The notes below the pieces were generated by a model that was not told where the DNA came from, made no database searches, and saw only the letters and a list, made by a program, of their open reading frames with translations. From the IMG/VR virus record IMGVR_UViG_3300045988_113183: a DNA stretch of 51,494 nucleotides. One strand, 5' to 3'. This DNA comes from a virus. This document shows positions 762 through 29,156 of the stretch, one piece after another; positions within the stretch are counted from its first letter, which is position 1, and every line of letters starts with the position of its first letter. Made by a program: the position numbers and the translations under genes.

Positions 762-791
762 TTGACGGTGGTGCGAAATATGCGATAGAAT
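762..791 (+). promoter_or_regulatory. Sigma-70-like promoter facing the structured RNA region
   Basis: TTGACG (762-767), 18-nt spacer, TAGAAT (786-791). Confidence 0.45.
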
Positions 792-955
792 GGCATAAGC
801 GCACCTGCGCAATGCGGTACGGCGCTTGAACACGGCAAGAGGATGTTCCGACATCCCTGAGGCTGGCGAAGCCAAAGGGCTGTAACTCCACCTCATCTAC
901 CTGCCTGTTTACTAGGCCACCGAAAGGGCGAAAGCCCCGTAGGTGGCTGTTTTAT

Positions 956-1025
956 GTGGGTGTACGAAATGACGGCTGTACAGCAGGTGCAAGCCGTGGC
1001 GGTTTGATTCCGTCCATCCGCACCA
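956..1025 (+). ncRNA. tRNA-like element lacking a D-arm, with encoded CCA
   Basis: 7-bp acceptor stem GTGGGTG/CATCCGC (two G-U pairs). T-arm GGCGG-TTTGATT-CCGTC. Discriminator A followed by CCA. The middle 35 nt form one long hairpin (ACGGCT..AGCCGT) instead of D and anticodon arms. Confidence 0.4.
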
Positions 1026-1281
1026 GAACCCGCCTCCCCCGAAGGCGGAGTGGACGCATGGCCCCATCAGCCACCGGGAGCTGACCGTGTACCCCATTGC
1101 ACGGTGAATTTCTCCTTTCAGGCTCTCTCGTGTTTTGTACGTTGTATCCTCCCAGAATAACAGCCTTTTGTACCCCGGAGGCCCCGGAACGCTCAGGCGG
1201 CCTGTCAGATTCCGCCGGTGTGTGCGTCCAAAACAAAATCCCCCTGAAGTGCCCGACCAGCACCTCAGAGGGATTATATAA

Positions 1282-1415
1282 GCCGTTGTAGCTCAAGCAG
1301 AGCGGCGGGCATTTAACCCGCGTCACATTGACGATACGCAAGAGCTGATTCTTCCCGAGCCTGTCACCGGGAAGCGGATGCCCTTGTGGTGCTGGTTCAA
1401 GTCCAGCCTTCGGCT
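1282..1415 (+). ncRNA. tRNA-like element with all four arms but a 69-nt insertion at the variable-loop position
   Basis: Acceptor GCCGTTG/CTTCGGC (two U-U mismatches). D-arm GCTC-AAGCA-GAGC. Anticodon arm GCGGG-CATTTAA-CCCGC. Insertion at 1322-1390 containing hairpin 1351-1374. T-arm GCTGG-TTCAAGT-CCAGC. Confidence 0.4.
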
Positions 1416-1423
1416 ATTTATAT

Positions 1424-1492
1424 GCCGCCCTAGCGCAAGCGGAGCGCATTTGCATGTGTAGATGCAAAGGGTTCAATTCCGAAAGGCGGCCA
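1424..1492 (+). ncRNA. Degenerate tRNA-like element
   Basis: Acceptor GCCGCC/GGCGGC. D-arm GCGC-AAGCGGA-GCGC. 7-bp stem TTTGCAT/ATGCAAA with a 6-nt loop (or a 6-bp stem with an 8-nt loop). The GGTTCAATTCC T-loop motif is present but its stem is only about 2 bp. Confidence 0.3.
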
Positions 1493-1496
1493 TTGT

Positions 1497-1572
1497 ACAG
1501 CAGTAGCTCAACTGGTAGAGCAGCGGTCTCCAAAACCGCCGGTTGATAGTTCGATTCTATTCTGCTGCGCCA
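1497..1572 (+). tRNA. tRNA-Trp (anticodon CCA), CCA end encoded
   Basis: Hand-folded cloverleaf. D-arm GCTC-AACTGGTA-GAGC. Anticodon arm GCGGT-CTCCAAA-ACCGC. T-arm GATAG-TTCGATT-CTATT. Discriminator G73 followed by CCA. Positions 1:72 are an A-C mismatch. Confidence 0.8.
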
Positions 1573-1986: not shown

Positions 1987-2604
1987 ATGGACATTGTGAG
2001 TTTACGGCTTGATGAGCTGACCCCTTACGAAAACAACCCTCGACAGAATGATGCTGCCGTGGATGCCGTTGCCGCCTCTATCAAGCAGTTCGGCTTCAAA
2101 GTTCCCATCGTGGTGGATGCCAACAACGTCATCGTGGCCGGGCATACCCGTTTCAAAGCTGCTGCAAAGCTGGGCCTCGATACTGTGCCCTGTGTGGTAG
2201 CTGACGACCTGACCGAAGAGCAGGTCAAGGCATTCAGACTGGCAGATAACAAGGTCGGTGAGCTGGCCGAGTGGGATACCGAAAAGCTGTCTCAGGAGCT
2301 GGCCGGAATCCTCGATATTGACATGGAGCAGTTCGGCTTTAGCTCTGAGCTTGAAGAGCTGGGCGACGAGATGCTGGACAACCCCTATACCATGAAAACA
2401 AACATTCCGCAGTACGAGCCGACTGGAGAGTGTCCAAGCCTTGCAGATCTGTATGATACATCCAAAACGGATGAGTTGTTGGCTGAAATTGAAGAAGCTG
2501 ACCTGAATCCAGAAGAGAAGGGCTTTCTACTGCAAGCAGCCGGGCGACACACTGTTTTCAACTACCGCAAAATCGCAGAGTATTACGCCCATGCCTCCCC
2601 CTGA
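1987..2604 (+). CDS. ParB-like nuclease (ParB/Srx N-terminal) domain protein
   Basis: LDELTPYENNPRQN ... IVAGHTRFKAAAKLG ... FRLADNK is the typical ParBc motif set. The ORF stops at CCC-TGA (2599-2604). Confidence 0.8.
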   Translation: MDIVSLRLDELTPYENNPRQNDAAVDAVAASIKQFGFKVPIVVDANNVIVAGHTRFKAAAKLGLDTVPCVVADDLTEEQVKAFRLADNKVGELAEWDTEKLSQELAGILDIDMEQFGFSSELEELGDEMLDNPYTMKTNIPQYEPTGECPSLADLYDTSKTDELLAEIEEADLNPEEKGFLLQAAGRHTVFNYRKIAEYYAHASP

Positions 2605-2731
2605 GATGCAGGAGCTCATGGAAAAGTCTGCCCTTGTTATTATCGATGAGGGCGACGCTATCCGTAACGGTTTTGTATCTCTCTCCACTGTCGTTTCCGG
2701 CTTGATGGAAGAGGAGCAGAACGATGCGTGA
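2603..2731 (+). CDS. +1-frame continuation of the ParB-like ORF (EMQELMEKSALVIIDEGDAIRNGFVSLSTVVSGLMEEEQNDA), or a separate 42-46 codon ORF
   Basis: The frame is open from 2507. The sequence is protein-like. No RBS precedes its ATGs (2591, 2606). Its stop overlaps the GT start. Confidence 0.45.
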   Translation, partial: EMQELMEKSALVIIDEGDAIRNGFVSLSTVVSGLMEEEQNDA

Positions 2732-3605
2732 CGATTTTGCTGTGTTCATCCTGACCCACGGGAGAGCTGAGAAGGTCGTGACTGCTGAGACGCTCAAGCG
2801 CCAGAAGTATTCCGGCAAGGTCTATTTTATCATCGACAACGAAGATGATACCGCCGACCTGTACCGGGAGAAGTTTGGAGCCGAGAACGTCATCATGTTC
2901 GACAAGGCCGCTGCTGTGGCCCGTGCTGACACGATGGACAACATCTGTGAGCACCGTGCCATCCTGTATGCCCGCAACGAGAGCTTCCGTATCGCCCAAA
3001 AGCTGGGCCTGAAGTATTTTCTCATGCTGGACGATGATTACACAGACATCCTTGTGCGCTGGCCTGAGGGCAAAAAGCTCAAGGGAAAGAGCCTGACCGG
3101 CGAGAGACTGGACGGCCTGTTCGAGGCGATGCTGGATTTTCTCGATGCGTCTGGCGCTGCTATGGTAGCTCTGGCACAGGGCGGAGATATGATCGGCGGA
3201 GTTCACGGCGGCGGATATAAGATGGGCCTGAAGCGGAAGTGCATGAACAGCATGTTCTGCCGGGCTGATACCCCTGTCGAGTTCCGTGGAACTATGAACG
3301 AGGATGTCACGACCTACACCACCCTTGGCAGCCGCGGCGTTCTCTTTTTTACGTTTATGCGCTGTCAGGTGACGCAGATTCAGACGCAGAGCCTTTCCGG
3401 CGGTATGACTGAGGCGTACAAGGAGAGCGGGACTTACACCAAATCCTTCTACTCCGTCATGTCCATGCCCTCCTGCATCAAGGTGGGAGAGATGGGCGGA
3501 AGCCACCGCCGGATTCACCACTCTATCAATTGGGACTGCTGCGTCCCGAAGATTCTGAACGAAAAATACAGAAAGGAGCGAGAAGATGCAGAACATCGCA
3601 AGTGA
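2724..3605 (+). CDS. GT-A-like glycosyltransferase (DxD-type), possibly of the phage DNA-base glycosyltransferase (TET-associated GT-like) kind
   Basis: N-terminal beta-strand followed by HGR (FAVFILTHGR). YFIIDNEDD and FLMLDDDY acidic motifs. Start overlaps the upstream ORF and stop overlaps the radical-SAM start. Confidence 0.5.
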   Translation: MRDDFAVFILTHGRAEKVVTAETLKRQKYSGKVYFIIDNEDDTADLYREKFGAENVIMFDKAAAVARADTMDNICEHRAILYARNESFRIAQKLGLKYFLMLDDDYTDILVRWPEGKKLKGKSLTGERLDGLFEAMLDFLDASGAAMVALAQGGDMIGGVHGGGYKMGLKRKCMNSMFCRADTPVEFRGTMNEDVTTYTTLGSRGVLFFTFMRCQVTQIQTQSLSGGMTEAYKESGTYTKSFYSVMSMPSCIKVGEMGGSHRRIHHSINWDCCVPKILNEKYRKEREDAEHRK

Positions 3606-4545
3606 CAAGATGATGGCCCACATTGACCGCATTGCAGGAAACCGACTGCCTATCACGGCAGATATCTTCCTGAACAACTTCTGCAACAACCGCTGCCCCT
3701 ACTGCACATACGGACGTTGGGAGCTTGACCCTGACGCTCATGCCATGGCGTACGAGGATTTTGTACGCTACGCCATGAAGCTGCTGGAGCTGGGAGTCGA
3801 GGGCTTCATTCTCACCGGCGGCGGAGAGCCTACTATCTCCCCTGATTTTGACCGTATTACCGAGTGGCTGGATAAGAACGAGCTGCACTATGGAATCAAC
3901 ACCAACTTCAACGCTATTCGCTTTCCGAAGCCCGATTACCTGAAAGTCAGCCTTGACGGATGGGATGAGGACAGCTATGAGCAGCGCCGGGGCGTGAGAT
4001 GCTACAACAAGGTTGTGGACAATATCCGTGACTATGCTTTCTGGAAGCGCAAGCACAGCCCCAAAACGTCTTTGGGCATTCAGTGTGTTGTTTCCTCTGC
4101 CGATGATGTAAAGCGATTCTACGGGGCGAATAAGAGCCTCCCCGTGGATTATATCTCGTTCCGGCCCATTGAAAGCACCGCCGGGAAAGCCTATGATACT
4201 GGAACCGCCAAGGCACAGGCTCGTGAAGCTGTGGCTGCCATTAAAGCTCTGGCCGCTGCTGACCACCGTGTCGTCCTCAATTTCAAGTGGGAGATGCTGG
4301 ACTGGCAGGAGCCGACCTGTACCGCCTCGTGGGCACAGATTGCCCTGAACGAAAAGGGCGAGGTCATGTACTGCTGCCACAAGCCGTATCAGATCGTGGG
4401 CCACATCCTCGACCCTGATATTTTGGAGAAGAAAAACCGGGCCACCACCGACATGAGCGGGTGCGATATCCCCTGCCGGATGACTGGCCCAAACGCTGCT
4501 GTCCGTGAGCTGATGACCGAACGGAAAGACGCTTGCTTCATCTGA
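3586..4545 (+). CDS. Radical SAM enzyme with C-terminal Cys-rich (auxiliary-cluster-like) region
   Basis: CNNRCPYC (CX3CX2C) motif, ILTGGGEPT motif, and C-terminal CCHKP and GCDIPC cysteines. AGGAG RBS. Confidence 0.8.
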   Translation: MQNIASDKMMAHIDRIAGNRLPITADIFLNNFCNNRCPYCTYGRWELDPDAHAMAYEDFVRYAMKLLELGVEGFILTGGGEPTISPDFDRITEWLDKNELHYGINTNFNAIRFPKPDYLKVSLDGWDEDSYEQRRGVRCYNKVVDNIRDYAFWKRKHSPKTSLGIQCVVSSADDVKRFYGANKSLPVDYISFRPIESTAGKAYDTGTAKAQAREAVAAIKALAAADHRVVLNFKWEMLDWQEPTCTASWAQIALNEKGEVMYCCHKPYQIVGHILDPDILEKKNRATTDMSGCDIPCRMTGPNAAVRELMTERKDACFI

Positions 4546-29074: not shown

Positions 29075-29156
29075 CAGAAAATCCCCCTGCTGATACCGAA
29101 GCCCAACGTTCAACGCCGGGTCCGCGTAGGTACAGCGGGGGGATTTTTCTGTTTTT
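29075..29156 (+). terminator. Long inverted repeat plus T-run after the lysis module
   Basis: CAGAAAATCCCCCTGCTG pairs with CAGCGGGGGGATTTTTCTG (~17 bp) around a ~40-nt loop, followed by TTTTT. Confidence 0.4.

Follow-up and report, generated by a model that had tools for sequence, protein, structure and literature searches.

ROOL and GOLLD are highly structured non-coding RNAs that are encoded by phages, adjoin tRNA genes and have no assigned function. The ROOL model describes a conserved multi-pseudoknot fold of about 580 nt, and the GOLLD model contains a universally conserved 3' domain. The tRNA region of phage T4 encodes small stable RNAs (species 1 and 2, RNA C and D) that are co-transcribed with tRNAs. 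The tRNA-like MALAT1 mascRNA defines RNA ends through RNase P and RNase Z, and in RsaE/RoxS and the UCCC-motif sRNAs of S. aureus a C-rich motif is conserved and unpaired. In GOLLD the 5' region varies and the 3' region is conserved, and the linker sometimes holds tRNAs (PMC12286853). Plant mitochondrial t-elements are tRNA-like signals that define RNA ends via RNase P/RNase Z (PMC1920247), and YrlA is a tRNA-mimicking bacterial Y RNA, bound by Ro60/Rsr and also present in phages (PMC4201824).

Phage tRNAs have recently been recognized as weapons against tRNA-cleaving immunity. The PARIS nuclease AriB cuts the Lys(UUU), Thr(UGU) and Asn(GUU) tRNAs as well as tRNA-Thr(CGU), and phage T5 escapes AriB by variant tRNAs; non-productive decoys are an idea raised by the authors (PMC12409363). 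Phage tRNAs also counter retron effectors (PMC11555353). The locus described here links this theme with that of the ROOL and GOLLD RNAs.

We analyzed a 51,494-nt stretch of viral DNA (IMG/VR record IMGVR_UViG_3300045988_113183), hereafter called the window. Between a sigma-like regulator gene upstream and ParB, terminase and packaging genes, it contains a gene-free stretch adjoining a tRNA-Trp gene, and this stretch is a genuine non-coding RNA locus, conserved in uncultured phages of the human gut. Its homologs all lie on contigs of viral or gut-metagenome origin, with the regulator gene on one side and packaging genes on the other; because most come from one metagenome study, their diversity is limited. 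DNA matches in GenBank phages covered the tRNA-Trp part only, with none for the core RNA, and two motif scans of 185,579 reference genomes were both without match. Comparison across related phages, proposed as a check in an earlier reading of the sequence alone, showed helices kept by compensatory base changes in dozens of gut-phage contigs. Folding energy (z = −2.6 for the plus strand and −5.0 for the minus strand, 20 shuffles) is by itself weak evidence, and the real support is covariation. The RNA was assigned to the plus strand, because many conserved G-U pairs would be C-A mismatches on the opposite strand. MAFFT alignments of modules B, G and the core across distant types were partly out of register, and helix variants were therefore tabulated per sequence by script. 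The features of the array are:

762..791 (+), promoter-like site TTGACG-18-TAGAAT, 10/12 match to consensus in a scan, transcript start predicted at ~795–798
797..827 (+), 5'-terminal hairpin in the consensus fold, outer helix AAGCGC/GCGCUU, inner helix of 4 bp
828..955 (+), variable spacer ("module A"), holding hairpins 841–856 and 915–948
956..1025 (+), module B, tRNA-like, no D arm, ending in ACCA (discriminator A and encoded CCA, 1022–1025)
956–962 with 1015–1021 (+), module B acceptor stem of 7 bp, then a 9-nt linker
998–1014 (+), module B T arm, which accompanies a single stem-loop with CAGCAGG in its loop
1030..1047 (+), hairpin Pa, just 5' of the core, CCCCG in the loop; absent from the short (L088) type
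1051..1230 (+), core four-way-junction RNA, from the consensus fold; ~200 nt when counted from Pa (1030–1230)
1051–1059 with 1222–1230 (+), core P1
1060–1072 (+), core P2 hairpin
1074–1082 with 1180–1187 (+), core P3, enclosing P3a and a pyrimidine-rich linker
1083–1105 (+), core hairpin P3a, inside P3
1148–1152 (+), CCUCC in the pyrimidine-rich linker of core P3
1189–1193 with 1217–1221 (+), core P5, enclosing hairpin 1196–1216
1237..1275 (+), hairpin P6, 17 pairs, loop YYGACCA, then the AU-rich spacer UAUAUAA
1282..1415 (+), module E, tRNA-like cloverleaf, 35.7 bits with the Rfam tRNA model
1282–1288 with 1408–1414 (+), module E acceptor stem, two U-U mismatches in the window
1291–1303 (+), module E D arm
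1305–1321 (+), module E anticodon arm, loop CAUUUAA
1322–1390 (+), module E variable region of ~65 nt, two hairpins, one at 1351–1374
1391–1407 (+), module E T arm
1424..1490 (+), module G, tRNA-like, acceptor stem GCCGCC/GGCGGC (1424–1429 with 1485–1490)
1433–1448 (+), module G D arm
1450–1456 with 1463–1469 (+), module G 7-bp stem, closing the 6-nt loop GUGUAG (1457–1462)
1473–1479 (+), module G T loop UUCAAUU, on a stem of only 2–3 bp
1497..1572 (+), canonical tRNA-Trp(CCA), last gene of the array, called by ARAGORN, 61.6 bits with Rfam

Positions 795–1572 of the window probably form one non-coding transcription unit, with a predicted promoter and predicted transcript ends. The sigma-70-like promoter proposed earlier at 762–791 was recovered as TTGACG-18-TAGAAT, and across 13 aligned loci (the window and 12 relatives) its −35 and −10 bases vary little or not at all; the scan overall was at chance level, with 3 sites found versus 1.9 expected. 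All locus types, the short L001 and the distant L088 types among them, have the 5' hairpin (797–827), which is likely a 5' stabilizer of the transcript.

The same region could be read as a long regulatory leader of the late/packaging operon, under the upstream sigma-like regulator, in which hairpin and U-tract elements would serve for attenuation, or RNA polymerase would be modified by the RNA (put/EAR-type processive antitermination). Its place, with the regulator gene directly on one side and the ParB, terminase and packaging genes directly on the other, agrees with this, as do the U/A-rich tracts that follow hairpins 915–948 and 1237–1275, and the strong intrinsic terminator that ends the array just before the next gene in the L074, L088 and L070 groups. 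However, a second promoter-like site, better than that at 762–791, lies downstream of tRNA-Trp (1624–1652, 11/12), only short U tracts follow the internal hairpins, tRNA and tRNA-like genes would be unexpected inside a leader, and there is no resemblance to known antitermination RNAs in Rfam. We consider a leader improbable.

Within the predicted transcription unit, the module order in the window is hp5-A-B-core-P6-E-G-tRNA. The L001, L025, L033 and L088 types have the order core-(G)-tRNA-X-E, L068 and L041 carry tRNA-Thr(UGU) where relatives have E, and in a second phage group E stands alone, with a different junction RNA before it and a terminator after it. The well-supported helices are all local to one module, and each module closes on its own terminal helix. 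Since relatives reorder, drop or swap modules, a single monolithic fold is doubtful, and the locus is likely an operon of small RNAs, each folding separately, and not one giant RNA.

The sequence-only reading had proposed a ~700-nt ornate RNA of the ROOL/GOLLD type. Its structured non-coding phage RNA next to a tRNA was confirmed, and its single large RNA is doubtful given the permuted modules. The locus belongs to neither family: neither ROOL (RF03087) nor GOLLD (RF01998) matched at gathering score on the whole window or in 10 related loci, or at E ≤ 10 on 600–1700. As one large RNA, the ~700 nt would fold, and perhaps oligomerize, as a unit, and the tRNA-like parts would be T-loop building blocks or tethered tRNAs. 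Size, phage origin, position next to a tRNA and dense structure all fit this alternative, all module types co-occur in most relatives, and GOLLD itself joins variable 5' and conserved 3' regions, sometimes with tRNAs in the linker (PMC12286853). Against it stand the lack of a match to ROOL, GOLLD or another large RNA at any threshold, the permuted order, the loss of modules or their replacement by ordinary tRNAs between close relatives, and the closure of each module by its own helix. Furthermore, the consensus fold of the whole region contains only two inter-module helices, neither with a compensatory change, and a candidate loop contact is not general: the pairing of the P6 loop (ACCA) with UGGU before the T stem of E, predicted by RNAalifold, was rejected because other E copies have unrelated upstream hairpins. 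What the locus shares with ROOL and GOLLD is being phage-encoded, non-coding, highly structured and adjacent to tRNA genes; a fixed architecture of the whole RNA was not found, and whereas ROOL and GOLLD are each one conserved multi-pseudoknot fold, this array is a string of self-contained modules in varying order. We regard one large RNA as quite improbable.

For an operon of small RNAs, Rfam offered no family other than tRNA, even at E ≤ 10; weak matches to His-leader, tRNA-Sec and WT1-AS were counted as chance. The array appears to belong to no described RNA family, and this conserved structured locus, absent from Rfam 15, fits the fallback of the sequence-only reading, namely something of similar nature that is not yet described.

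Hairpins named in that reading at 916–947, 1030–1048, 1084–1105, 1196–1216 and 1351–1374 were all confirmed and persist in relatives, in most cases with compensatory changes. Hairpin 841–856 is present as claimed but specific to the window, the surrounding stretch of ~831–915 being poorly conserved, with a low-identity alignment in L004 only. The GC-rich hairpin 915–948, which is followed by UGUUUUAU, is kept in L003–L012, and its inner helix switches from GGGC/GCCC to CGGC/GCUG between relatives. Hairpin Pa shows compensatory changes at one pair (UA in 15 copies, GC in 8, CG in 5).

The three tRNA-like modules that had been proposed were all recovered. Module B showed the expected acceptor stem, T arm and ACCA end (956–1025), and its acceptor stems occur in four sequences, all of which pair (GUGGGUG/CAUCCGC, GCGGAUG/CAUCUGC, GCAGACG/CGUUUGC and GCGAUAC/GUAUCGC). 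A weak Rfam match to tRNA-Sec at 955–1022 (E ≤ 10) was counted as chance. A G3:U70 alanine identity was discarded, as it is present in some copies only, unconserved, and absent in the window. We also rejected a tmRNA: ARAGORN found none, standard or permuted, Rfam gave no tmRNA match, and module B has only 70 nt and no mRNA-like domain.

Module G (1424–1490) has an acceptor stem, D arm and T loop. The stem under its 6-nt loop has 5 pairs changed on both sides, 0 of 500 shuffles attained the covariation score, and the loop itself is conserved (28 distinct copies aligned). The figure of 84% paired for module G is an underestimate, because the MAFFT alignment is partly out of register. The adjoining tRNA-Trp was confirmed by ARAGORN and Rfam at 1497–1572; most relatives have tRNA-Trp at the same place, and some have tRNA-Lys(UUU) or tRNA-Thr(UGU) there instead.

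Module E (1282–1415) scored 35.7 bits with the Rfam tRNA model (RF00005), above the gathering threshold of 29, and its relatives scored 39–50 bits. In 45 distinct copies, 96.8% of cells in the four arms are paired, with 10 pairs changed on both sides, a covariation level reached by 0 of 500 shuffles. Its 7-nt loop is CAUUUAA in 38 copies, UAGCUAA in 3 and CAGUUAA in 2. We take CAUUUAA, CAGUUAA and UAGCUAA to be A33 versions of the tRNA-Lys, tRNA-Asn and tRNA-Ser(GCU) loops, respectively; in the window, the loop is that of tRNA-Lys(UUU) with U33 replaced by A. Position 33 is A in 43 of the 45 distinct copies, and U33 was seen only in the second E-like copy of L131 (2453–2598). One relative has an E with the canonical loop CUGGUAC and an ACCA end; an encoded CCA is otherwise usually absent. 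The variable region of tRNAs has 4–5 nt in class I and up to about 20 nt in class II (PMC7609411), a range exceeded by the ~65-nt insertion of E between the anticodon and T arms. This long region carries a conserved CAYUG..GAUAC motif. ARAGORN called no module E in the window or relatives. Module E has the cloverleaf, but departs from decoding tRNAs in U33, in the size of the variable region and in the gene-finder call. The copy in the window could be weakened, because its acceptor stem has two U-U mismatches and its D loop lacks GG.

Such features might be expected if the array were in decay, a functionless set of tRNA pseudogenes and junk spacer. In the window, ARAGORN called tRNA-Trp only, passing over B, E and G; E has two acceptor mismatches and A33; and the T stem of G has 2–3 bp. 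Decay is nevertheless very unlikely, since compensatory changes maintain the helices across 22–45 distinct copies from at least 3 phage lineages, A33, the long variable region with CAYUG..GAUAC and the 6-nt loop of G are themselves conserved, and the core sequence is not tRNA-derived.

A protein-coding region can be dismissed as having next to no probability: minus-strand open frames of 120–160 codons do occur in the window and some relatives, but neither frame nor length is conserved, alignment gaps of varied length run throughout the region, and the substitutions are of a base-pair-compensating type. In agreement with the sequence-only reading, 703–1496 is without a convincing ORF; the longest in this stretch, an antisense frame of 129 aa (952–1341), had no match in Pfam, and in 20 relatives, including close ones, the longest open frame ranges from 70 to 207 codons, with frames and strands varying between loci.

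With an RNA operon as the preferred reading, its modules suggest how it may be processed. In modules B and E the acceptor stem has 7 bp and the T arm 5 bp; G has an acceptor stem of 6–7 bp and a T loop. The three border the core and each other, and in front of each stand a hairpin and an AU-rich spacer of the UUAUAU type. We lean slightly towards the view that these acceptor/T-arm minihelices serve as signals for RNase P and for 3'-end processing. Cleavage at the minihelices would free individual RNAs, each protected by a terminal hairpin.

Like t-elements and mascRNA, the modules are acceptor/T-arm mimics at the borders of other RNAs; those elements belong to organelles and eukaryotic nuclei, whereas the present ones are from a phage, with processing as a prediction only. 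The T4 small RNAs are likewise phage non-coding RNAs within a tRNA operon, with tRNA-like ends, freed by tRNA-processing enzymes, but they come from an unrelated phage lineage with unrelated sequences, and we know of no T4 small RNA with an anticodon-loop mimic or a CCUCC-bearing junction RNA. YrlA is similar in being a modular non-coding RNA with a tRNA-like domain (T arm, D arm, acceptor-like stem); the array had no match to a Y RNA model in Rfam, and no Ro-binding helix was recognized in it.

The anticodons of module E across relatives are UUU, GUU, GCU and GGU, and as canonical tRNAs these phages carry Trp, Lys(UUU), Thr(UGU), Thr(CGU), Asn(GUU) and Met. The E loops (Lys(UUU), Asn(GUU), Ser(GCU)) and the accompanying Lys, Thr and Asn tRNAs overlap the AriB target set. 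By analogy, module E, possibly with B and G, may be a tRNA mimic directed against tRNA-targeting defenses of the host. We tentatively propose that E, and possibly B and G, could serve as a decoy or uncleavable surrogate for tRNAs that read A-starting codons and are attacked by host anticodon nucleases. PARIS and PrrC are brought in by analogy with E. coli. Modules B and G imitate no anticodon loop, which counts against a mimic, as does tRNA-Trp, the commonest partner, which to our knowledge is not a known PARIS target. The array shares with the T5-type anti-PARIS tRNAs (Lys, Thr and Asn) the anticodon classes, as its canonical tRNAs include Lys(UUU), Asn(GUU) and Thr and module E has the anticodons given above, and it also shares changes located in the anticodon stem-loop. 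The T5-type tRNAs are ordinary decoding tRNAs with few substitutions, whereas in module E the universal U33 is replaced by A, the variable region is branched and ~65 nt long, and CCA is usually not encoded. Doubtful, yet conceivable, is a new class of gut-phage tRNA mimics, A33 cloverleaves with the branched ~65-nt variable region and anticodon loops copied from the Lys, Asn, Ser and Thr tRNAs of A-starting codons, that would trap or outcompete host anticodon nucleases, in a late RNA operon that would also deliver a new four-way-junction RNA acting on translation initiation by an anti-Shine-Dalgarno CCUCC.

In the core RNA, both strands of helices P1, P3 and P5 are completely rewritten from one locus type to another, P3 occurring as CCGGG.GCU/GGCCCCGG, CAAAGCU/AGCUUUG and CAAGGCC/GGCCUUG. 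CCUCC is present in 44 of 45 distinct cores, versus 11.4 expected from shuffles; it lies in a hairpin loop in the short type and other groups, and in a linker in the type of the window. If exposed, this anti-Shine-Dalgarno-like motif could let the core act on ribosome-binding sites of mRNAs or on the ribosome. We consider action through CCUCC rather unlikely, and the possible pairing of CCUCC with the conserved GGAGG at 1177–1181 in the type of the window counts against it. RsaE/RoxS and the UCCC-motif sRNAs of S. aureus share a conserved C-rich motif complementary to the Shine-Dalgarno sequence, but the C-rich-loop sRNAs of Firmicutes are short and two-hairpin, whereas here the motif sits within a four-way junction of 110–210 nt with no Rfam match. 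RNase P RNA, SRP RNA, a GEMM-like riboswitch, a hammerhead and tmRNA were rejected by eye for the core and the E insertion, as their motifs and model matches are absent.

Downstream of the core, the P6 stem varies with compensation and its loop motif is kept. On the minus strand of the window, P6 resembles a terminator (1275–1237); this was rejected, as the minus-strand U tract is absent in relatives of the L001 type and the G-U pairs favor the plus strand.

The array joins in one covariation-rich unit ordinary tRNAs, tRNA look-alikes of three kinds and a new junction RNA. Were module E a decoy, no inhibitor of an anticodon nuclease made of RNA alone would precede it. In either case, Rfam would gain new families from the core RNA and from the tRNA-like RNAs whose variable region is long. 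Current tRNA and non-coding RNA annotation pipelines would miss all of the modules except E, which is caught by the Rfam tRNA model.

An exact 38-mer of module E had no match in IMG/VR. CRISPR arrays with the repeat ATTTCTATCCACGCCCTCCGCGAGGAGGGCGAC carry a spacer against module E.

We class the locus as a phage tRNA/tRNA-like RNA operon; two or more of its RNA families, among them the core and module E, are absent from Rfam 15. It resembles phage tRNA operons carrying extra stable RNAs, as well as tRNA-like processing elements. In the window, a 5' hairpin, the variable spacer A, module B, the core, hairpin P6, module E, module G and a tRNA follow one another.

Features of the locus
154-702, gene of a sigma-r4-like regulator (weak sigma-70 region-4 signature), with which the window starts
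762-791, promoter-like site, between the regulator-gene palindrome and the array
956-1025, module B: 7-bp acceptor stem, T arm and A-CCA tail
1051-1230, core: four-way junction of helices P1, P2, P3 and P5
1282-1415, module E: cloverleaf of four arms with a mini-hairpin
1424-1490, module G: acceptor stem, D arm, 7-bp stem with 6-nt loop, and T loop
1497-1572, tRNA-Trp(CCA), at the 3' end of the array
1987-2604, + strand, ParB N-terminal-domain protein, just downstream of the array
2724-3605, + strand, TET-associated glycosyltransferase (E = 6e-44)
3586-4545, + strand, radical SAM protein, upstream of terminase-like genes

No credible reading frame was found between the promoter-like site and tRNA-Trp. 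The longest ORF of the stretch lies on the antisense strand (952-1341, 129 aa), and Pfam gave no match for it; the longest open frame in 20 relatives ranges from 70 to 207 codons, with varying strand and frame. All locus types retain the promoter bases and the 797-827 hairpin. The sequence-only reading, which had described 798-1496 as a hairpin-dense region without a convincing coding frame behind a promoter, is confirmed in its observations, and all of its listed hairpins were found. Folding energy by itself is unimpressive as support (z = -2.6 on the + strand and -5.0 on the - strand, 20 shuffles). Selection acts on the + strand RNA, as frequent conserved G-U pairs show. The stretch is very probably a structured, non-coding, modular array.

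For comparison, 12 IMG/VR loci were retrieved via the neighbouring regulator protein, many further viral contigs with three DNA motifs, and human-gut contigs by one metagenome motif scan, and two human-faecal phage fragments were added from GenBank, giving 45 distinct sequences of the core, 45 of module E, 28 of G and 22 of B. No DNA match for the core was found among GenBank phages. Neither of two motif searches across 185,579 reference genomes gave a match; the element is so far known from uncultured phages only.

Compensatory changes among the related phages were found in helices of B, the core, E and G. Together with the absence of the core and E from Rfam 15, this covariation supports the broader proposal of an undescribed structured phage RNA. 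The narrower proposal, a ROOL- or GOLLD-like RNA, is not supported: the locus is likewise phage-encoded, adjoins tRNAs and lies in a late region, but neither family's model matched the whole window or ten related loci at gathering score, or positions 600-1700 in a permissive search at E<=10. At gathering score, Rfam 15 returned just tRNA-Trp and an unrelated DUF3800-VIII RNA for the whole window. The latter (29081-29144, + strand, 60.1 bits against a threshold of 40.2) is a second structured RNA of the same phage. The permissive scan added a tRNA match at 1282-1415 (35.7 bits, gathering threshold 29), and its remaining extra matches were at chance level. The tRNA-model alignment of 1282-1415 has a ~65-nt insertion within the variable region; a review of non-canonical tRNAs contains nothing like it (PMC7609411).

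The four cloverleaf arms and mini-hairpin of module E are 96.8% paired over the 45 distinct copies, with ten pairs changed on both sides, a number matched by 0 of 500 shuffles; sliding the structure by 1-3 columns lowered pairing to 22-52%. The stem under the 7-nt loop alternates between GCGGG/CCCGC and CCGCC/GGCGG. In module B, one stem-loop stands where the D and anticodon arms would be, and the acceptor stem occurs in four very different sequences, every one of which pairs. The 7-bp stem of module G has five doubly changed pairs and closes the loop GWGUAG, and the T loop sits on a very short stem; the 84% pairing of G is lowered by one-column register slips of the MAFFT alignment. In the relatives L003, L004 and L008-L012, E is separated from G by a ~60-nt insert (columns 816-876 of alignment A1) that is not in the window: a half copy of G (acceptor strand and D arm) and, behind it, the perfect hairpin CUGGUGAC-AAAU-GUCACCAG.

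Between the long core type of the window and the short type (L088/L089), P1, P3 and P5 are re-coded on both strands. Variants of P3 are CCGGG.GCU/GGCCCCGG, CAAAGCU/AGCUUUG and CAAGGCC/GGCCUUG, and those of P5 are ACGCC/GGUGU, AUCCC/GGGAU and AUCCU/AGGAU. CCUCC occurs in 44 of 45 cores (11.4 expected), and in the short type it lies in the loop of hairpin P3a, which P3 encloses. We give a low probability to the proposal that the core acts via CCUCC. In further phage groups found via module E (L101, L103, L137), the upstream RNAs differ in sequence; CCUCC again precedes E, at a distance of ~40-70 nt and in pyrimidine-rich surroundings, and is within a predicted hairpin loop in L103 and L137.

An nhmmer module map of all loci bears on whether the array is one RNA or several. 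The L001, L025, L033 and L088 types have the order core-(G)-tRNA-Trp-X-E. Module B is missing from some relatives, and P3a inside the core from some. In the close relatives L068 (10104-10178) and L041 (5406-5480), a normal tRNA-Thr(UGU) stands where others have E or tRNA-Trp, and these cassettes appear interchangeable. In a second phage group, the junction RNA right before E is a different one of similar build, and E is followed directly by an intrinsic terminator and then by an HNH gene. A whole-region consensus fold recovers the local modules and proposes just two inter-module helices, neither with compensatory changes; a suggested loop contact between modules was dropped as not general across copies. 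Each tRNA-like module lies behind a stable hairpin and a spacer of the UUAUAU type, the layout expected if RNase P were to cut the 5' side of every tRNA-like element and the upstream RNA were trimmed back to the protective hairpin. On balance we favour such processing into separate RNAs.

The loop of E is CAUUUAA (38 distinct copies), CAGUUAA (2) or UAGCUAA (3), which we take to be the loops of bacterial tRNA-Lys(UUU), tRNA-Asn(GUU) and tRNA-Ser(GCU), except that A stands in place of the universal U33. The metagenomic contig L131 has two E-type genes (2453-2598 and 2714-2855), the first with the canonical loop CUGGUAC (Thr GGU, U33 present), an encoded ACCA and the long variable region; the adjoining tRNA-Trp is truncated. 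Most of these phages have an ordinary tRNA for Trp(CCA); the other ordinary tRNAs among them are Lys(UUU), Thr(UGU), Thr(CGU), Asn(GUU) and Met(CAU). All of these except Trp, and all E anticodons, read codons starting with A. The targets that the cited account gives for the PARIS effector AriB are exactly Lys(UUU), Thr(UGU), Asn(GUU) and Thr(CGU) (PMC12409363). Because of this codon pattern and target set, a tRNA-mimic or anti-defence role would, by analogy, be the most likely function of E, tentative as counter-defence by mimicry is; Trp falls outside the pattern, and the acceptor stem of the window's E has two U-U mismatches, both of which count against it. An inverted partial E copy in L077 (1673-1848), fused to pieces of the downstream HNH-endonuclease gene beside the terminator, is a local rearrangement.

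Upstream of the array, the palindrome TGTGCAAAATGCACA (703-717) and an extra TGTGCA half-site (694-699) span the stop codon of the regulator gene. Similar TGCACA-type repeats are retained among relatives, and the second phage group has tandem GCACTGTTTT boxes in their place; both are probably regulator binding sites. Downstream, a second, stronger promoter-like site (1624-1652, + strand, TTTACA-17-TATAAT, 11/12) is followed by a 37-aa ORF (1704-1817), a terminator-like hairpin (1935-1958) and the ParB-like gene. The three-gene set at 1987-4545 suggests a DNA hypermodification module.

CRISPR arrays were found on human-gut metagenome contigs (L106 (2016-3614), L112, L114, L125, L130, L133, L135 and L136), with the 33-nt repeat ATTTCTATCCACGCCCTCCGCGAGGAGGGCGAC; L106 has at least 24 copies of it. 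One of the spacers exactly matches a segment of module E from the L088-type phages, which provides a handle for host identification.
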